From Simkaniaceae bacterium (GTDB lineage: Bacteria > Chlamydiota > Chlamydiia > Chlamydiales > JAJFMI01), in assembly GCA_040880145.1 (NCBI GenBank), contig JBBDIZ010000029.1, positions 4,820-68,819 on the forward strand: a stretch of 64,000 nt of DNA, read 5' to 3'. How positions within the stretch are numbered: the first letter of the stretch is position 1; the number at the start of each line of letters is the position of its first letter. Positions 5,115-45,021 of the stretch are shown piece after piece. Under the pieces are notes generated by a model that made no database searches, was not told the origin of the DNA, and saw only the letters and a list, made by a program, of their open reading frames with translations. The position numbers and the translations under genes were made by a program.

Positions 5115-7024
<1,910 letters not shown>

Positions 7025-24310: not shown

Positions 24311-24348
24311 CTATACCGAAACGACTTTTTGAAGTCGTTTCGGTATAG
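24311..24348. repeat. repeat family A, complete palindrome (perfect 17-bp stem, 4-nt loop)
   Basis: CTATACCGAAACGACTT-TTTG-AAGTCGTTTCGGTATAG. Begins 12 nt downstream of the pheT stop on the minus strand. Confidence 0.95.
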
Positions 24349-24360
24349 CATTGATTTTTG

Positions 24361-26841: not shown

Positions 26842-28041
26842 ATGGGTGAAGATTCATATTGGGTAAAAAAAATTCGGAAGCTCACACAAATATTGATTGT
26901 GAGCGGTTCTTTAAATGTTGCCTTTTTGGCTACGTTAATTTATTTTGCTCTTCCTAAAAAAGAAATTTTCATTAAATCGACATCTTATCGCACTCCGCCT
27001 TTGACGACAAGTCATCTTAAAGTGCTGCAAAATTATTTTGAGACAAGTTATGAAAGCCTTTTACAGGAGCTTGAAAATGAAGAGCAGATTTTTGATGGAT
27101 TTTCCTATCGAGATTTAGCCTTAAGCTGTTTGGTGAGTTTTCATGACTTTGATATTGAGCGCGCGCTTCCAGGGTTTCCTCTTCAAAAGCGGGAGATGGC
27201 TTATCTCAACAAATCGGGGGGTGAGCAGGTTGAGCTTACGCTCTTTCCAGGATTAAAAAAAGAGCATTTTGTTGCTATTTCTGACTTTGCTTCAAAAGAG
27301 AGATGGCCTCTTACAACAAAGGGGCTTTTTTTTGAATTGCAGTCTTTAAAACAACCCCCTTCCTCACTTGTCAGCTCGTTTCTATTAACGAAGGAGTTTC
27401 ATGCCATTGAAATTCTCTTTAATCATCTGCCTGCACCTGTTTCGAAAGAGATTCTGCTTTCTCTTTTATTGCAAGGAAGCTGGGATCGTTTGGCCTCCTT
27501 TGTCAAGCGGCACCAAGATCTCGATGCGCTTTCACCTCTTGAAAGACGCGAGTTTTTGCTCGATTACGCTGGGGGCGGCTCTACTTATGCCGCGACACTT
27601 TTAGTGGCAACAGATCGGGATTTTGTCCAACATGAACTCGATGATGAACGGCTTGTTTCAGTGATGTCAAATCTACAAATTCTAACGGAGGAGACAGAGA
27701 GCCTCGTCAAAGAGCTTCTCTATAGTTTGCGCTCAGACAAGGTGCGTACTTTAGCCGGGGTTAAGCTTTACGCCCTTTTAGGGGAGCGCCCTCCTGAGCC
27801 CTACGATCACTTTACAACTTTAAAGCGCTTTTTACCTGAATTTTTCGATGAGATCACCCCCCAAATGGTCAATGATCAGCCCTCTCACTCTTCAAAGCGT
27901 TATCGTATTAAGGAGGGAGACACCCTCTGGCACATTTCTCGAGATTACAAGGTCTCTGTCGATGAAATATTGAAAGCCAATAACCTCAAGTCGGCATACC
28001 TCCTCCCTGTTGGGAAAGAGCTCATAATACCCAATTCTTGA
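26842..28041 (+). CDS. membrane-anchored LysM-domain protein
   Basis: 399 aa. N-terminal TM segment. C-terminal LysM YRIKEGDTLWHISRDYKVSVDEILKANNLKSAYLLPVGKELIIP. The stop codon lies inside a family-A repeat. Confidence 0.75.
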   Translation: MGEDSYWVKKIRKLTQILIVSGSLNVAFLATLIYFALPKKEIFIKSTSYRTPPLTTSHLKVLQNYFETSYESLLQELENEEQIFDGFSYRDLALSCLVSFHDFDIERALPGFPLQKREMAYLNKSGGEQVELTLFPGLKKEHFVAISDFASKERWPLTTKGLFFELQSLKQPPSSLVSSFLLTKEFHAIEILFNHLPAPVSKEILLSLLLQGSWDRLASFVKRHQDLDALSPLERREFLLDYAGGGSTYAATLLVATDRDFVQHELDDERLVSVMSNLQILTEETESLVKELLYSLRSDKVRTLAGVKLYALLGERPPEPYDHFTTLKRFLPEFFDEITPQMVNDQPSHSSKRYRIKEGDTLWHISRDYKVSVDEILKANNLKSAYLLPVGKELIIPNS

Positions 28042-28056
28042 AGTTGTTTCGGTATA
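28038..28056 (+). repeat. repeat family A copy, perfect consensus
   Basis: TTGAAGTTGTTTCGGTATA. The upstream flank CCCAATTC is shared with the copy at 13931. Its TGA is the LysM gene stop. Confidence 0.95.
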
Positions 28057-28459: not shown

Positions 28460-29359
28460 ATGTCGACCTTTGAAATTAATGGATCATTTAGAAATTGCTT
28501 TCTTATTATTTTTCTTGTTGTCATCGTAATGCAGTGTTCAGGACCGGAACATACGAAACAGTCGAATAATATTTCAAGGATATTAGATCCTATTGATTCA
28601 GATTGGCTTGAGAAGTTTTATCGAGATCTCTTTTTAGATGGACCGATGATCTACACGTTACTGGGATCAAAGCCGATGTCTTGCCATGAAATTATTGACG
28701 CAAACGAGGAAGAGTGGATTCGAGCACATGAAATGTTTTTCGATGCTGTTCCCGAATCAAAGAAAGAGAAAATTAGAAAAGAGTTTTTAGAAGAAATTCA
28801 GAATTATACATTGCATGAGCACTGGATTAAGTGGAAATGCATTCGCTCACGCTTTCCAAATCAGGAGTTTTTATTTAGAGAGATTCTAAGCGAGAGTCCC
28901 CATCTTTATTTTGTTTGTGTTGTCAATACGAAGCTTGTGATTAAAATGCTTCTTCAGCATTACGATCTTTTTCGTAAAGAGCTAGGGTTTGACTTCGACC
29001 CTCTTAGCGCAGCGCTTGAATTTGAAAAAGAGGATTCGATTTTTTGGAAGAAACTCTTTGCCAATCATTTTTTACAGGGGATTCTTTACGGATTTGGGTT
29101 AGAAAACGCTTATTTCTTCTCTCAAGAAAATCAGAGAAAGGGTGAAAAGTCGATCGAATCGGTTTTTAAGCGGCGTTCACTGCCGGTAAACGATGGAATC
29201 ATAGAAATTCCTCGCTTCGCTTCTTACCAAGTGGAAGAGGGGGAAGATCTTGTAATCGCTCGGTATCAAAAAGAACGAACTGAAATTCAAAAAAAGATAA
29301 TCGAGAACAATTGGGTCGAACTTATTTCGGCGCTTCTTTTAGACAAGAGAGCTTCTTAG
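28460..29359 (+). CDS. hypothetical exported protein
   Basis: About 299 aa. N-terminal hydrophobic segment FLIIFLVVIVMQC. No motif recognised. Its start is back-to-back with the divergent ORF. Confidence 0.45.
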   Translation: MSTFEINGSFRNCFLIIFLVVIVMQCSGPEHTKQSNNISRILDPIDSDWLEKFYRDLFLDGPMIYTLLGSKPMSCHEIIDANEEEWIRAHEMFFDAVPESKKEKIRKEFLEEIQNYTLHEHWIKWKCIRSRFPNQEFLFREILSESPHLYFVCVVNTKLVIKMLLQHYDLFRKELGFDFDPLSAALEFEKEDSIFWKKLFANHFLQGILYGFGLENAYFFSQENQRKGEKSIESVFKRRSLPVNDGIIEIPRFASYQVEEGEDLVIARYQKERTEIQKKIIENNWVELISALLLDKRAS

Positions 29360-29565
29360 TCAACCTCGTCAATTCCACCCGGATGCCAGGGGCCGCATTT
29401 GAGAATTCGGATGAGGGCGAGATAGAAACCTTTAAAAAACCCCTTTTTTCGAAAGGCTTCTTCGGAGTAACTCGAGCAGCTCGGGTAAAAACGACAGCGC
29501 TGGCCTAGAAGGGGGCTAATACAAAATTTGTATAGTTTGATTAAGCCGATCATGATCCATTTCAT
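29356..29565 (-). CDS. yidD: membrane protein insertion efficiency factor
   Basis: 69 aa. ISPLLGQRCRFYPSCSSYSEEAF...CGPWHPGGIDEV. Confidence 0.92.
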   Translation of the reverse strand: MKWIMIGLIKLYKFCISPLLGQRCRFYPSCSSYSEEAFRKKGFFKGFYLALIRILKCGPWHPGGIDEVD

Positions 29566-29624
29566 TTTTCTATTTTAACCCTATGACCTCTTTTTTCTTG
29601 ATCATTTTTTTTCTATTTTTATCG

Positions 29625-29643
29625 ATGAAGTTGTTTCGGTATA
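29625..29643 (+). repeat. repeat family A copy (ATGAAGTTGTTTCGGTATA), 1 mismatch
   Basis: Lies between yidD and structured element copy 1. Followed by TAAGTC, as is the copy at 28038. Confidence 0.9.
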
Positions 29644-29659
29644 TAAGTCGAACCTTCTT

Positions 29660-37876: not shown

Positions 37877-38675
37877 TAGAAAGAAAACAAGCGGAGATTA
37901 CGTGAATAGTGATCATTGGCATTATCGCAAGAAAGAAGAAGAATTTGGCTCTTTTAACTTAGAAGAGATGAGAAAAAAAATCGATGAAGGGGAGATCAAT
38001 GATGAGACTTTTGTTAGACATAGCCAAGACCCGGATTGGAAGCAGGTAAAAGAGATCAAAGAGCTCAATATCGAATTTCTCGATACGACACCACCGATTA
38101 CAAAGCCTGAGCTTGAAGAGCATAATTTAAAGTCAGAAGAGAGAGAGAAAAAGTGGACAAGACCCTTTATCCGTTTTTTTGCCCGTATGATGGACTATTC
38201 GCTTTTTTATCTTCTTTTGTGGTGCTTCGCTTATTTTTTCAATCAGCCTTTATTTCTACTTCACCCCCTTTTTTTTCTAACAATCATAACATTTATTTTT
38301 GTCTTTATCGAAGCGCTATTCTTCTCTATCATTGGAACCACGCCGGGAAAGTGGTTTTTGAAAACCACAGTTCGAAAAGAAAATGGGAAAAAACCGAGTT
38401 ATCGCGAGGCTCTTGCTCGAGCTTTAAGTGTTTGGGGGCTGGGGTTTGGCGGGGGTCTTCCCATCATTTGTATCATCACAGGAATCGTTGCGAATATCAA
38501 GCTTTCGAACACGGGGTTAACAACCTGGGATCGCCACTATCAGTTTAGCGTTACCCACAAGCGACTGGGATTTTTCCGGACCTTCTTGACTGTTTTGTAT
38601 TTTATTTTTTTTATAGCTCTACTCAACGGCGATCTCAATATTTGGAGCCGGCTAGCTATCGGAACCAGCCTGTAG
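37857..38675 (+). CDS. GYF-like N-terminal domain + RDD-family membrane protein
   Basis: WHYRKKEEEFGSFNLEEMRKKIDEGEINDETFVRHSQDPDWKQV is DUF4339/GYF_2-like. It is followed by RPFIRFFARMMDYSLFYLLLW and three TM helices (RDD). Confidence 0.55.
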   Translation: MIQRANSRKKTSGDYVNSDHWHYRKKEEEFGSFNLEEMRKKIDEGEINDETFVRHSQDPDWKQVKEIKELNIEFLDTTPPITKPELEEHNLKSEEREKKWTRPFIRFFARMMDYSLFYLLLWCFAYFFNQPLFLLHPLFFLTIITFIFVFIEALFFSIIGTTPGKWFLKTTVRKENGKKPSYREALARALSVWGLGFGGGLPIICIITGIVANIKLSNTGLTTWDRHYQFSVTHKRLGFFRTFLTVLYFIFFIALLNGDLNIWSRLAIGTSL

Positions 38676-38800
38676 AGATAGCAAAAACGATGAATGCTAA
38701 ACAGCATGCAGCCCACCTTTTTTTCTTTTTTCCATGCATTTTCAAATGACTTGAACATCTTAACTAACATGAACCCAATAAAAGGTGTTAAGATCATGAG

Positions 38801-38997
38801 GCCGGAGAGTCGGTTGACATCCTCCCAACTGCTAAAGCAAGTGGAATTCCCTATTCTTACGTTTAGGGTTCCTAATTCTCAGACCGTAGCTTTCGGTTCC
38901 ATTAGGAACGGGAAGTCTTACACAGTCTCCAAAGGCTTAACATCCCACGAGCCCCGTGGTAGACCTAAAAAGGTGAATGTAGTTTAACAGATTATGG
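38801..38997 (-). ncRNA. paralogous structured element, copy 2 (candidate ncRNA or cis-regulatory RNA; transcribed strand unknown)
   Basis: The reverse complement aligns with 29660-29848. Shared blocks AGGTCTACC, GGATGTTAAGCCTTTGGAGA, GAATTAGGAA, TAGGGA and TGTCAA, with covarying stems. Confidence 0.45.
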
Positions 38998-39038
38998 AAA
39001 AAACAAAAATACGAAACAAAAATTTAAGACGCTCTCAT

Positions 39039-39062
39039 CCCACCCCTAAAGAGGTGGGTTTT
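39039..39062 (+). terminator. terminator-like hairpin
   Basis: CCCACC-CCTAAAGA-GGTGGG followed by TTTT. Lies in a 530-bp non-coding gap about 145 nt upstream of the EamA gene. Confidence 0.35.
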
Positions 39063-39064
39063 CC

Positions 39065-39085
39065 CGCGGGCAGTCATAAAAAACC
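39065..39085 (+). repeat. repeat family B copy (CGCGGGCAGTCATAAAAAACC)
   Basis: Identical at 20 of 21 positions to the reverse complement of 44931-44951. Confidence 0.85.
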
Positions 39086-39206
39086 ATTTCCAATTTAATT
39101 CCATAGAAAAACCTAAGTGCCTAATATTTAGAATGATAATATTTATTCCTCGATCAGAATTTATCATTAATATTTAAATTCGTTTTGGAGTATAATACTT
39201 GAAGCG

Positions 39207-40079
39207 ATGGAAAAAAAAACCCTTTTTTATATCCTATTGGCTTTTTTAGGCTCTTCTTTTGTGGGGCTGGCTCCTCTATTTGTTCGCTGCAGCGGAATTG
39301 GGCCTGTAGGTGCGGGTTTTTACAGGATTTGTCTCTCGTTGCCTTTTCTCTTTCTTTGGATGAAAAGAGGAAAGAGAGTCGAGCTTTTAGGGAGGGATTG
39401 GGTCAAATTGGCTCTCTATGGGGGGCTTTTTGCGCTAGATCTATCTCTTTGGAATCTCTCCTTAAGCTATACATCGGTTGCAAACGCTTCGCTTTTTAAT
39501 AATTTTGCTGCCTTTGTGGTGCCTCTTTTACTTTTTATTTTTTATAAAGAGCTTCCAACAAGTCGTTATTTGCAAGGGGGAGTTTTAGCCTTATTGGGCT
39601 CTTTTTTGCTTATGAAAGGCTCTTTAAATTTTTCTATCTCCTCTTTGTTTGGCGACTCTTTAGCCCTTTTATCCGCGGTTGCTTATGGGGGCTATCTGAT
39701 TATCATTAAAGAGCTTCGCAGCAAGCTCTCTTCAGGGCATATTCTTTTTTTTGGGGGGATTTTTGCTCTTGCTGCTCTTTTTACAATCGCCATCGTAAAA
39801 GGAGAGAGCTTGAGGATTGCTACGACTCGAGAGTTTTTTCTTCTTTTTGCTTTTGCTCTATTTGCTCAGCTCTTGGGTCAAGGGTTGATCGCCTATTCTA
39901 TGGGAAGGCTCTCTTCAAAGGTTGTAGGGCTTGTTCTTTTGACTCAGCCAATAGTATCTACTCTGCTAGCTTATTTTCTTTTAGGAGAGAGCGTGGCTCT
40001 TTCGGCTCTTTTTGGAGGGGCTCTTATTTTGACGAGTCTTTTTTGGGCTCAGGAGAGGAAAGGTCTTGATACTGCTTGA
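39207..40079 (+). CDS. EamA/DMT-superfamily transporter
   Basis: 290 aa with 10 predicted TM helices in two EamA-like halves. Confidence 0.75.
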   Translation: MEKKTLFYILLAFLGSSFVGLAPLFVRCSGIGPVGAGFYRICLSLPFLFLWMKRGKRVELLGRDWVKLALYGGLFALDLSLWNLSLSYTSVANASLFNNFAAFVVPLLLFIFYKELPTSRYLQGGVLALLGSFLLMKGSLNFSISSLFGDSLALLSAVAYGGYLIIIKELRSKLSSGHILFFGGIFALAALFTIAIVKGESLRIATTREFFLLFAFALFAQLLGQGLIAYSMGRLSSKVVGLVLLTQPIVSTLLAYFLLGESVALSALFGGALILTSLFWAQERKGLDTA

Positions 40080-41271
40080 GTTTGTTGCGTAGTGTTCGGA
40101 CATGGATCCCTAAAGATTTAGCGGTCTTAGTACGATTATAATGATGATAGGTGAGTGTTTTTTCGATATACCACCTCTCAAGTTCGTAAAGCGTCAGAGA
40201 GCTCTTGAATAAAGAGGGAAAGGAGAGGGTCCTCTTGATTGGAAGGTGCTCGGGCAGGATCAAATGACTTTTATCGAGAACAACGACATGTTCAATGAGA
40301 TTTGACAGCTCTCGAATATTTCCGGGGAAGTCATATTCTAAAAGTTTATCTATCGCGCCGCAAGAGAGTTCTTTTTCATCTTTTTGATTTTTTAAGCAGG
40401 CTTTTTTTAAAAAGGCCTTCGCAAGAGGAATGATATCTTCTTTGCGCTCACGTAAGGGGGGAAGCTCTAAGGGGACAACATTTAGCCTATAGTAAAGATC
40501 TTCTCGGAACTCGCCGCCTGTGATCATCTTCTCTAAATTTCGATTCGATGTCGAGATCAGGCGGACATCGACTTTTTTTGTTTGGGTATTCCCAAGTCTT
40601 TCAAATTCACCCTCTTGAGCGGCCCTTAAAAGTTTTGCCTGAAGAGAGAGGGGGATTTCTGAAATCTCATCAAGGAGCAGGGTTCCTTTATCCGCAAGCT
40701 CAAATCGGCCCAATCTTCTCGAAATTGCTCCTGTAAAGGCGCCTTTTTCATGGCCAAAAAATTCCGCTTCAATCAAACTTTCAGGAATCGCAGCGCAGTT
40801 AACCTTTAAGTAGGGAGCTTTTTTGCGAGGAGAATTCTTATGAATGTAAGATGCAATCACTTCTTTACCGGTTCCTGACTCGCCGGTGATAAACACATTG
40901 GCATGGCTGTTTGCAATTTTTTTCGCATCTTGTAAAAAATTTTGCATCACTTTGCTTGTAGCGATAAGATCTGTTTGATGAGACTTTAATTCATCAATGG
41001 CATTGATAAGAGAGGTGTCCATTGTTTTTGCGAAGAGATCTAAAAGCAAAAGAAGAGCATGAGGCGCTTTTTGCTCAAAGGAGTGCATCGATCCATCATA
41101 ATGGGTTTTGTCGACTAAAATAAGGTCGACTTCATCTTTTTCAAGATATTTAAGGGCATCTGAAGTATCACTTAAGATGTGAACATCGATTTTTTGCTCT
41201 TTAAGGTGGGCAAGAAGAAGATGGGACCTCCTGTCAGGAGAGCTAATAATTAAGGCTTTAGGTGCAGACAT
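40024..41271 (-). CDS. sigma-54-dependent response regulator (NtrC/AtoC family, CtcC-like)
   Basis: Receiver-like N-terminus with DLILVD. AAA+ GESGTGKE, GAFTGA-type loop EAEFFGHEKGAFTGA, and C-terminal HTH NRTKTAKSLGIHVRTLRNKLKQY. Confidence 0.88.
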   Translation of the reverse strand: MSAPKALIISSPDRRSHLLLAHLKEQKIDVHILSDTSDALKYLEKDEVDLILVDKTHYDGSMHSFEQKAPHALLLLLDLFAKTMDTSLINAIDELKSHQTDLIATSKVMQNFLQDAKKIANSHANVFITGESGTGKEVIASYIHKNSPRKKAPYLKVNCAAIPESLIEAEFFGHEKGAFTGAISRRLGRFELADKGTLLLDEISEIPLSLQAKLLRAAQEGEFERLGNTQTKKVDVRLISTSNRNLEKMITGGEFREDLYYRLNVVPLELPPLRERKEDIIPLAKAFLKKACLKNQKDEKELSCGAIDKLLEYDFPGNIRELSNLIEHVVVLDKSHLILPEHLPIKRTLSFPSLFKSSLTLYELERWYIEKTLTYHHYNRTKTAKSLGIHVRTLRNKLKQYQDLSSPEPKKDSSK

Positions 41272-41310
41272 CGTTATTATTTTATTTTTATTTCTAATTA
41301 AAGGAATATA

Positions 41311-42129
41311 ATGAAACACCATTTTTTGCAATTAAACTATTTTATTATCTTTGGGTTATTTTTAATTAGTTGCCAAGGGTGGGAGCGCACTGAAAAAGAT
41401 CGCATCAAGAAGGTCAATGAGGTTTCAAGTCGAGTTTATCGCTATCATTTTGAGCGATATGCTGAGGAAACTCCTTTACTGCATCGAATACGTGAACGCT
41501 ATCCATTTGAAGAAAAGATGATTGGGCTCATCCCGAAAATTACCAAAGAACATTTTCGTTGCAGGGGAAGTAGCCATAACCCGATACAAATCAAAAAAAA
41601 TCAACAGGGAAACGCGTATTCTCTAGTTGACTGCGGTGGCATTGAGCAGCATAGCCTTCCTGTCGAGGAAAATAGCGAAAAGATTTACCCAATCTTGATC
41701 GATCTTTTAAATAATGTTCAAAAAGAGACGAATCGACGCGTCATTGTGACTTGTGGACATCGCTGCCCGATTCATAATGCCTATAGTGATCAACGAGGAA
41801 AAAATTTGAAGTCAAAGCATTTAATTGGTGCTGAAGTAGACTTCTACGTTCAAGGATATGAGGAATCTCCAAGGGAGATTATTGATATTCTTCTTGAATA
41901 TGATAAGGATCAAGAATACGGCTTGTTTTATTATGCTTTAATTGATGGAGTTGCCACTTGGCAAAATAAGGAAGTGAGATTTTCTCTTTTTCAGAAAAAT
42001 CAAGGCCGTGATTTTGATAATCGACATCCCTACTCTTATATTACCATTGAGCTTCTCTACGACCGAAGTGAAAACAAGCGTGTCTATTACACATGGCATC
42101 GTTCATTTAATGGATACTTGAGATGGTAG
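41311..42129 (+). CDS. peptidase M15A-like (YcbK/DUF882-type) zinc D,D-carboxypeptidase-family lipoprotein
   Basis: Lipobox LFLISCQG. VTCGHRCPIHNAYSDQRG...SKHLIGAEVDF matches the SGYR-x-N...H-x6-D pattern. Confidence 0.55.
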   Translation: MKHHFLQLNYFIIFGLFLISCQGWERTEKDRIKKVNEVSSRVYRYHFERYAEETPLLHRIRERYPFEEKMIGLIPKITKEHFRCRGSSHNPIQIKKNQQGNAYSLVDCGGIEQHSLPVEENSEKIYPILIDLLNNVQKETNRRVIVTCGHRCPIHNAYSDQRGKNLKSKHLIGAEVDFYVQGYEESPREIIDILLEYDKDQEYGLFYYALIDGVATWQNKEVRFSLFQKNQGRDFDNRHPYSYITIELLYDRSENKRVYYTWHRSFNGYLRW

Positions 42130-44571: not shown

Positions 44572-44936
44572 ATTTTTTCTCCTTAGTTGATGACTAACCT
44601 TAGGTTTTTGTAGTCCCAAGGGAATTATAAGTCAAAGCAAAATGCAATGTTCCCCATTATACGTAAGTTGGCAGCAAAATGTCTAGTGCTCTACTGGATT
44701 GATTTTCAGGGGAATGCAAAAAAGTTAAGAATTGACGAAAAACACGTTAATAAATTATCAGTTTTTTAATTAAATTGGAGTGAATATGATCAAAGAGAGA
44801 TATGGGTTTAGCGGGCAAATAATAGCTGATAATTAACAATTTATAGAAGAAATTGAATCATTTTTTTCCTGTGTTAAACAAGGGGAGGTTGGGAGGCTTT
44901 ATCTCACATCAAAGTTTTCTGAAAATCTTGGATTTT

Positions 44937-44986
44937 TTATGACTGCCCGCGAAAAAACCCATGGTTTTAATCGTGGGCAGTCATAA
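44937..44986. repeat. repeat family B inverted pair forming a long hairpin
   Basis: TTATGACTGCCCGCGA (44937-44952) pairs with TCGTGGGCAGTCATAA (44971-44986): 16 bp including one G-U. The 18-nt spacer is itself palindromic (AAAACC-CAT-GGTTTT). Confidence 0.85.
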
Positions 44987-45021
44987 ATCTGTAGAAATTA
45001 AGTTGTATTTTAGGGCCTCAC

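Follow-up and report, generated by a model that had tools for sequence, protein, structure and literature searches.

The DNA analysed here is a stretch of 64,000 nucleotides from a Simkaniaceae bacterium (the window), in which an open reading frame (ORF) with GYF/RDD domains (37848–38675, plus strand) and the ORF of an EamA transporter (39207–40079, plus strand) are separated by a gap of 531 bp (38676–39206). Positions 38814–39075 of this gap, read on the minus strand, very probably constitute a non-autonomous miniature insertion sequence of the IS200/IS605 family (IS605/IS606 group), similar to the palindrome-associated transposable elements (PATEs), which has lost its protein genes. This complete element of IS605/IS606 type, referred to as copy 2, is 262 bp long, contains no ORF and is composed of a left end, a spacer, an RNA scaffold and a right end. 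It is antisense to the EamA gene and points away from it, and nothing ties it to EamA expression. An earlier note on the same DNA had distinguished here a structured element (38801–38997), a terminator and a "family-B" repeat, and had taken them for a plus-strand leader of the EamA gene. The repeated, structured nature of the element was confirmed but its limits were not; the "structured element", the "terminator" and most of "family B" are parts of one 262-bp unit on the opposite strand.

The 18-nt core CCAAAGGCTTAACATCCC was found exactly twice in the window (38929–38946 on the plus strand and 29724–29741 on the minus strand) against 0.04 occurrences expected by chance, and the two copies aligned over about 200 nt. 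A degenerate core pattern, used to search genomes and metagenomic contigs, revealed homologues in a Chlamydiae metagenome-assembled genome (MAG; L002, with L005 being the same sequence), in Endozoicomonas sp. ALC020 (L003) and in the metagenomic contigs L004 and L006. Two further metagenome matches (L007 and L008) were discarded as chance matches in GC-rich coding DNA, and no match was obtained for the core pattern in viral contigs or for the window element in a blastn search of plasmids. A 23-nt core was identical in the Simkaniaceae, the other Chlamydiae MAG, two metagenomic contigs and Endozoicomonas. A profile built from six loci of the element (nhmmer) detected copy 2 at 39082–38803 (minus strand, E = 8e-59) and copy 1 at 29616–29839 (plus strand, E = 3.5e-52). 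No third copy was detected in the window by the profile search, only a solo palindrome at 44933–44987.

The element is thus dispersed, with two copies and one left-end fragment in the window and relatives in a Chlamydiae MAG, Endozoicomonas and two phage-like contigs, each among different neighbours. Copy 1 lies beside yidD and the tRNA-Leu gene and copy 2 beside the RDD and EamA genes; the relatives lie next to ndk and a heptosyltransferase gene (L002), a LysR regulator and malate synthase G (L003), RecT, DnaC-like and HTH genes (L004) and the large terminase subunit gene (L006). Different neighbours in every case argue against a cis-regulator of one kind of gene. The identity between copies 1 and 2 was 75%, as compared with 83% between copy 2 and L004 and 88% between copy 1 and L006. 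Copies 1 and 2 are therefore closer to foreign elements than to each other, which points to separate insertions of sister lineages and not to a local duplication.

All complete copies shared one order of modules, given here as read on the plus strand of copy 2. The first module comprised TTGAC(A/C), a hairpin with a CTAAAG loop and ATTCCTAATTC; the second one the highly conserved core followed by about 50 AT-rich nucleotides; and the third one a second, similar hairpin within GGCGGCTTATAT...TTACGCCGTCA. In the phage-like contig L004, an isolated second end hairpin (CCTCCCCATGGCTAAAGCCAGAGGATTCC, 5325–5355) was additionally observed about 400 nt from the complete mini-element.

The modules could be assigned by comparison with elements that carry tnpB. 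When phage genomes were searched with the L004 element (blastn), its first module (a 37-nt stretch) gave matches of 79–95% identity. In mycobacteriophage Llij (gp83) and Alicyclobacillus phage KKP_3916 the matching DNA formed the extreme 3′ end of tnpB, in antisense orientation relative to the query; in phage SG4 the site stood alone. Pfam domains HTH_OrfB_IS605, OrfB_IS605 and TNB were detected in Llij gp83, and OrfB_IS605 and Cas12f1-like_TNB in the KKP_3916 gene. On the sense strand of tnpB the first module reads GGAATCCCC-hairpin-GGGGAG..GTCAA, and its position at the 3′ end of the gene together with this sense-strand reading identifies it as the right end of a transposon; Llij gp83 ends in the same right-end hairpin and GTCAA. 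In KKP_3916 (L011) the six-element profile matched both the left end, upstream of tnpB (3829–3727, E = 1.6e-6), and the scaffold with the right end, at the 3′ end of tnpB (2629–2501, E about 1e-6). The KKP_3916 left end, TTTAT|CAGTTGAGCCGTAAAACCCC-hairpin-GGGGATATAAGGCG, plainly corresponds to that of the mini-element, and the last 190 nt of the phage element were about 77% identical to copy 2 over about 150 aligned positions in a gapped global alignment.

In both phages, KKP_3916 and Llij, the homologous scaffold overlaps the 3′-terminal part of the tnpB gene, lies on the sense strand of this gene and runs to GTCAA, the tnpB stop codon of KKP_3916 being situated 47 nt before the end of the element. 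The window element and the phage elements accordingly have in common a homologous penultimate hairpin, the right-end hairpin and the GTCAA terminus, with the left end also homologous in the case of KKP_3916. They differ in that the phage elements encode TnpB and their scaffold overlaps the coding 3′ end of the gene, whereas the window element lacks an ORF and has not kept the reading frame. The ORFs overlapping copy 2 gave no Pfam match, and no similarity to TnpB was detected in any frame. Since both ends and the scaffold match a tnpB-bearing element, the window element can be regarded as the remainder after deletion of the tnpB body. Because tnpB and the scaffold overlap at the 3′ end of the gene in full-length relatives, such a mini-element would have originated by an internal deletion joining the left end and promoter region to the omega RNA module.

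Two further observations were made in the phage genomes. Phage SG4 (L010, 2503–2537; also Enby and Lorde) contains a solo right-end-type hairpin, TTGACCTCCTCCCCACGGCTAAAGCCGGGGGATTC, in the intergenic region between gp43 and the repressor gene, where tnpB is absent from the vicinity. Over 37 nt its identity to the L004 right end amounts to 94.6%. The conservation of the right-end sequence from actinobacterial phages to elements associated with Chlamydiota is striking. In Llij (L009, 2947–3538) a match to Rfam RF02743 (Sernc389, a Saccharopolyspora "antisense sRNA", sRNA denoting small RNA) was obtained antisense to gp83 with 74.2 bits, just at the gathering score; RF02743 appears to represent the reverse strand of a tnpB coding region.

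The limits of copy 2 were set by alignments A2 and A3, the conserved GTCAA end and the TTAT flank. Read on the minus strand, the element is preceded by 5′-TTTAT (39076–39080), directly 5′ of the left end on the top strand, which is a candidate target or transposon-associated motif (TAM). In all seven loci compared (copies 1 and 2, L002, L003, L004, L006 and phage L011) 5′-TTAT or TTTAT abutted the left end. The left-end terminal segment GACTGCCCGCGGGAAAA (39059–39075) aligns to TGACGGCGTAA(A/T) of L002, L004, L006 and L011; it makes up most of the "family-B" repeat, which therefore exists but for the most part belongs to the element. The left-end subterminal hairpin CCCACCTCTTTAGGGGTGGG (39039–39058), with a loop of the CTTTAG type, corresponds to the CCCACC/GGTGGG hairpin that the earlier note had regarded as a terminator. 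It forms eight pairs on the minus strand (one of them U·G), whereas the plus strand has a C·A mismatch, and homologous hairpins are found at the corresponding place in L002, L004, L006 and the mini-IS605 of Helicobacter, as well as upstream of tnpB in KKP_3916.

An AT-rich spacer of about 60 nt (38976–39038) separates the left end from the scaffold. It holds the motif TGTTAAACT about 20 nt upstream of the scaffold, and TGTTAAA is partly conserved in alignment A2. The scaffold of omega RNA type (38814–38975, about 160 nt) contains the highly conserved core GGUCUACC-hairpin-GGGAUGUUAAGCCUUUGGAGA, in which the core hairpin CCACG-GGGCU-CGUGG is located at 38945–38959 and has undergone compensatory changes among the copies. 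The right end (38814–38845) consists of the imperfect hairpin CCACTTGCTTTAGCAGTTGGG followed by AGGATGTCAA; the hairpin proper, again with a loop of the CTTTAG type, spans 38825–38844, and the last base of the element is 38814, within the terminal GTCAA. The left-end and right-end hairpins are alike and lie on the same strand, with a conserved C·U irregularity mostly common to both. L002, L004, L006 and Helicobacter likewise have, in place of terminal inverted repeats, a pair of similar imperfect hairpins that lie subterminally on one strand, one at each end. Beyond the right end lies the 20-nt flank CCGACTCTCCGGCCTCATGA (38794–38813), which by its position would be the equivalent of a guide if the RNA were made as an omega RNA.

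The closest known counterpart of the short, gene-less layout is the mini-IS605 of Helicobacter. The literature reports that miniIS605 contains HPnc0580 (PMC6531487), that mini-IS605 and mini-IS606 consist of 100–150 bp of each end of the full element (PMC2993954) and that HPnc0580 is listed as an sRNA from the H. pylori transcriptome study of Sharma et al. 2010 (PMC8322730; Rfam RF02269). In the Helicobacter plasmid copies, TTTAA(A)C was followed by a left-end hairpin with a CTTTAG loop, TTGTAGTATAAT, HPnc0580 and a right-end hairpin. TTGTAGTATAAT stands immediately before the 5′ end of HPnc0580, in the same position as the spacer of copy 2, and by analogy with the Helicobacter transcript the promoter of the RNA may be located in this AT-rich spacer. 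The Helicobacter mini-IS605 can be aligned over its entire length with the long-type elements L002, L006 and L003, with which it has the blocks GCCTTTGGAGA, GTGTGAGAC and GCGAAAACCAA in common. The RNA strand, the order of modules, the lack of an ORF and a length of about 270–290 bp are common to the Helicobacter mini-IS605 and its relatives. The window copies represent a short variant with about 55 internal nucleotides fewer; their right-end terminus is GTCAA as opposed to TTCACA in Helicobacter, and their flank TTAT/TTTAT as opposed to TTTAA(A). The left end of IS606 is inserted next to 5′-TTAT (PMC2993954), so that the likeness to IS606 and mini-IS606 of H. pylori is one of target specificity (TTAT), no IS606 sequence having been compared.

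In the Rfam scans, run on the entire window with gathering thresholds and on the gap with E values up to 10, only noise was obtained apart from a weak match to HPnc0580, which served as a lead. The RF02269 model spans only the first 105 nt of the Helicobacter version; Helicobacter L012 scored 124 bits and L002 scored 32.6 bits against the gathering score of 37, on the strand opposite to that preferred in the earlier note. The window element and L002 are homologues of the Helicobacter element as judged from whole-length alignment and are not members of RF02269 by the criterion of Rfam. Rfam also contains motifs named "IS605-orfB"; no such family appeared in any Rfam scan performed here.

Guide-RNA-only elements have also been described in Geobacillus stearothermophilus, where gene-less PATEs "often encode omega RNAs" that have to be used in trans (bioRxiv 10.1101/2023.03.14.532601). 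These PATE-like elements (ISGst families) likewise have both ends and an omega RNA, no protein gene, and depend on TnpA and TnpB in trans; they belong to another host phylum and another sequence family, and their activity was tested by experiment.

A consensus fold of six homologues contained 28 pairs, 13 of which were changed on both sides, with 93.4% of the cells pairing. None of 500 shuffled controls reached these values, and in slid controls 36–49% of the cells were paired. The consensus fold of the minus strand had an energy of −22.9 kcal/mol and 13 compensatory pairs, and that of the other strand −15.7 kcal/mol and seven. Counting G·U against A·C, 18 G·U pairs fell within the predicted helices on the minus strand versus five on the other one. 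RF02269 matched on the minus strand only, and tnpB in the full-length relatives is sense to this strand. The orientation of tnpB, the Rfam matches, the consensus fold and the G·U counts together place the RNA on the strand antisense to EamA. The earlier note had mentioned a free-standing minus-strand RNA as a fallback; it was right about the strand and the RNA nature, but the omega RNA module of a miniature IS605-family transposon had gone unrecognised. Folding of single sequences on both strands of both copies gave z-scores from −0.4 to −1.4, which is not exceptional. RNAalifold on a mixed alignment of long, short and Helicobacter sequences recovered only the two end hairpins, with the centre misaligned, and this alignment was abandoned for the six-sequence one.

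The strongest conservation and covariation were internal, in the helix pairing columns 54–61 with 150–157 of alignment A3 and in the core hairpin. In the latter, two adjacent pairs were swapped in a compensatory manner between copy 2 (CCACG/CGTGG) and copy 1 (CCGTG/CACGG), and the hairpin reads CCGCG/CGCGG in L002 and GCGCA/TGCGC in Helicobacter. These observations bear on the possibility that the element is a repeat at the DNA level only, a palindrome of PATE or REP (repetitive extragenic palindromic) type whose hairpins in single-stranded DNA serve a transposase or genome architecture without any functional RNA. The ends of IS200/IS605 elements do act as DNA hairpins (bioRxiv 10.1101/2023.03.14.532601), the core and end hairpins would fold on either strand, and the window contains other families of palindromic repeats. 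However, the best conserved and covarying parts are internal and not the ends needed by a transposase, the internal helices contain strand-specific G·U pairs, and the internal parts correspond both to the omega-RNA-coding region, which overlaps tnpB at its 3′ end, and to the reported Helicobacter sRNA. A purely DNA-level repeat is therefore considered unlikely.

The structural data also bear on the proposal that the gap contains a plus-strand riboswitch or attenuator leader, possibly sensing S-adenosylmethionine or S-adenosylhomocysteine (SAM/SAH), in which ligand-dependent alternative stems and a terminator at 39039–39062 would control EamA. The plus-strand order of a structured domain, a hairpin with TTTT and a gene resembles that of such leaders, and in four genomic loci (EamA, yidD, ndk and malate synthase G) the downstream gene has its 5′ end turned towards the same side of the element, a number (n = 4) that is not significant. 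Such proximity of left ends to the 5′ ends of genes might be expected anyway, since an AT-rich target motif would favour promoter regions. The likeness is superficial, as there is no conserved association with a gene, the strand is the wrong one and conservation of an expression platform is lacking: the genes downstream are unrelated in function, two further copies lie among phage genes, and no Rfam family was found on the plus strand, with no riboswitch or leader match in the gap even at E up to 10. The left-end hairpin is present but did not pass the terminator scan, being followed by only four T, and the T-run is absent in L002 and L006; both the hairpin and "family B" are homologous to the left end of a transposon upstream of tnpB.

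Of the two mutually exclusive stems postulated for the leader, GGAA-CCCT/AGGG-TTCC is real; within the scaffold it forms the penultimate hairpin, for which covariation is seen in the phage elements. The competing stem GTTCCTAAT/ATTAGGAAC is not conserved and has no partner in copy 1, where the respective segment forms a purely local hairpin (CAACAA-TAAT-TTGTTG). The local hairpin covaries, as seen from GTTCC/GGAAC in copy 2 versus GCTCC/GGAGC in L004. The G·U pairs and the consensus folding energy likewise favour the other strand. The sole promoter-like site on the plus strand (TTAATA-18-TATAAT, 39167–39196) was identified between the element and the EamA start codon; although it is a consensus match only, it falls downstream of 39085, the position downstream of which a start of EamA transcription would, according to the earlier note itself, speak against the leader. 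Control of EamA by a plus-strand leader is thus most improbable, and a false lead, whether as a transporter riboswitch or as a SAM/SAH sensor, is removed.

The other statements on the gap fared better. When the window was crudely scanned for stretches devoid of ORFs of 100 or more amino acids, two exceeded the gap in length, the right edge of the window and 29360–29945; the latter holds yidD and tRNA-Leu, and the gap is indeed the largest stretch free of any gene. Neither of the two short ORFs in it had a Pfam match, in agreement with the view that they lack coding support. Copy 1 was found upstream of yidD in an orientation equivalent to that of copy 2 and EamA, an arrangement that had been put forward for checking. 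The EamA gene itself (Pfam PF00892, E = 1.3e-29) is a neighbour outside the element, 131 nt past the left end; its protein is identical to a database entry named "DMT family transporter [Simkaniaceae bacterium]", DMT standing for drug/metabolite transporter. It is convergent with the ORF of a sigma-54 activator (40024–41331, minus strand), the 3′ ends of both overlapping by 56 nt (40024–40079). A Logan contig with an identical EamA gene (SRR27977663_110902, L001) ends about 156 nt upstream of the ATG (about 39051), inside the left-end hairpin, which may reflect an assembly break of the kind expected at a repeat.

According to the family model (bioRxiv 10.1101/2023.03.14.532601), the Y1 transposase TnpA, supplied in trans, would recognise both hairpins of the top strand, excise the element as single-stranded DNA and insert it 3′ of a TTAT-type target. 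The scaffold would be transcribed together with the 16–20 nt just past the right end, which would form the guide. The resulting omega RNA would direct TnpB, also acting in trans, to cut the vacated site, and recombination would restore the element. The vacated site on the minus strand would read ...GGTTTTTTAT|CCGACTCTCCGG..., and TTTAT may represent the TAM or the target. In such a scheme TnpA and TnpB would exist, or would have existed, elsewhere in the genome.

Several results weigh against the identification of copy 2 as an omega-RNA-bearing mini-element. The covariation test involved six sequences only, and the structure was predicted on the same alignment that was then tested. The window segment 38885–38974 (minus strand) reached 16.9 bits with RF02269, below the gathering score of 37, and no promoter on the RNA strand passed the consensus scan in either copy. 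No TnpB partner was found when the ORFs in all six frames of the window and of L002–L006 were searched by phmmer with both phage TnpB proteins; no tnpA was noted in the 64-kb window, where no search aimed at Y1_Tnp was made. The TTAT flank and the exact ends rest on comparison, without a pair of inserted and empty sites, and a search for an uninserted orthologous site by means of EamA homologues revealed none, the nearest relative being 42% identical; the lack of an empty site can be explained by the host, a Simkaniaceae MAG without a close sequenced relative.

Part of these results would also fit a dead relic of the same origin, no longer transcribed, mobilised or used, in which the structure reflects selection in the donor lineage before insertion. 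This is a serious possibility, to which we give somewhat less than even weight. It is in accordance with the absence of a TnpB-like ORF from the window and from the surroundings of all five mini copies, the absence of a consensus promoter on the RNA strand, the loss of the left-end hairpin from copy 1 and the solo left-end fragment at 44933–44987. Moreover, as the copies are closer to foreign elements, their compensatory changes need not have arisen in this genome. On the other hand, copy 2 retains both hairpins, the terminal GTCAA and every helix of the scaffold, the identity of the 23-nt core across hosts argues for recent activity of the family, and the Helicobacter counterpart HPnc0580 is listed as an sRNA (Rfam RF02269; PMC8322730).

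Copy 1 (29623–29832, plus strand, 210 bp) differs from copy 2 at its left end. It has retained an intact scaffold and right end but carries TGAAGTTGTTTCGGTATA in place of the left-end hairpin; owing to this loss copy 1 is probably immobile. Only 17 nt separate the right end of copy 1 from the tRNA-Leu(GAG) gene (29850–29935), which was predicted by ARAGORN and Rfam and is likewise located on the plus strand. In 29350–29960 this strand showed no promoter-like site, and transcription of tRNA-Leu may depend on the output of the element. A decayed tRNA in copy 2 (GACTTGAAC), considered on the basis of the first pairwise alignment, was rejected, as the homology between the copies stops at GTCAA and ARAGORN was negative there.

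The arrangement at copy 1 raises the question of domestication, in which, for example, copy 1 would serve as the promoter or leader of tRNA-Leu(GAG), or the element would provide a regulatory sRNA or a guide for a nuclease-dead relative of TnpB. The 17 nt between the right end and the mature 5′ end of tRNA-Leu leave no room for a separate promoter, none being predicted, and the scaffold of copy 1 has stayed intact despite the loss of the left-end hairpin. A precedent is given by the described domestication of TnpB proteins into RNA-guided transcription factors (bioRxiv 10.1101/2023.11.30.569447). The phmmer search with the two phage TnpB proteins, however, detected neither a TnpB-like nor a TldR-like ORF in the window, and proximity to the tRNA gene may equally mean insertion into a tolerated AT-rich intergenic site. 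Domestication is accordingly regarded as quite unlikely. The same low probability is assigned to a specific form of co-option of the omega-RNA-only element, in which the scaffold and tRNA-Leu would be made as one precursor from an internal promoter and cut by RNase P, leaving a 17-nt tail of guide length.

The solo left-end-like palindrome (TTTTTTAT|GACTGCCCGCGAAAAAACCCA..., 44933–44987, plus strand) has neither scaffold nor right end. The segment 39060–39083, which comprises the left-end terminus and the TTTTTTAT flank of copy 2, recurs at 44933–44956 with two mismatches, and the palindrome matched positions 2–44 of the profile only (nhmmer E = 1e-3), inside a gene-free stretch of 402 bp (44620–45021). 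It may have remained from a decayed left end or have arisen as a minimal palindromic derivative. Long palindromes with the arm TATACCGAAAC(A/G)ACTTCAAGAA form a different family, observed at 13858–13952, 18445–18521, 24313–24350 and 28026–28056, and also at 29625–29645 inside copy 1; examples are the near-perfect hairpin at 24313–24350 and the 95-nt palindrome at 13858–13952 (−43.5 kcal/mol). TGAAGTTGTTTCGGTATA, which replaces the left-end hairpin of copy 1, is one arm of this family. They might represent REP-like elements or, alternatively, terminal parts of a further PATE family.

The kind of selfish element described here is already known, guide-RNA-only elements of mini-IS605/606 type having been reported from Helicobacter and Geobacillus. 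What is new are the hosts (environmental Chlamydiota, namely the Simkaniaceae and another MAG, Endozoicomonas and phage-like contigs), the short variant of the scaffold and the 23-nt core shared across phyla, between Chlamydiota and Gammaproteobacteria. Rfam models only the first 105 nt of the Helicobacter version (RF02269), as an orphan "sRNA", and the family is unannotated elsewhere. Such repeats break assemblies, and structure-based screens can mistake them for cis-regulatory RNAs. The short scaffold (about 160 nt) with its TTTAT flank could be of interest in the search for compact TnpB/omega RNA systems once the cognate TnpB is found. In the unlikely case that the element was co-opted, guide-only elements could spread as parasites of a TnpB encoded elsewhere, or could guide a domesticated relative of TnpB in a reduced intracellular genome.

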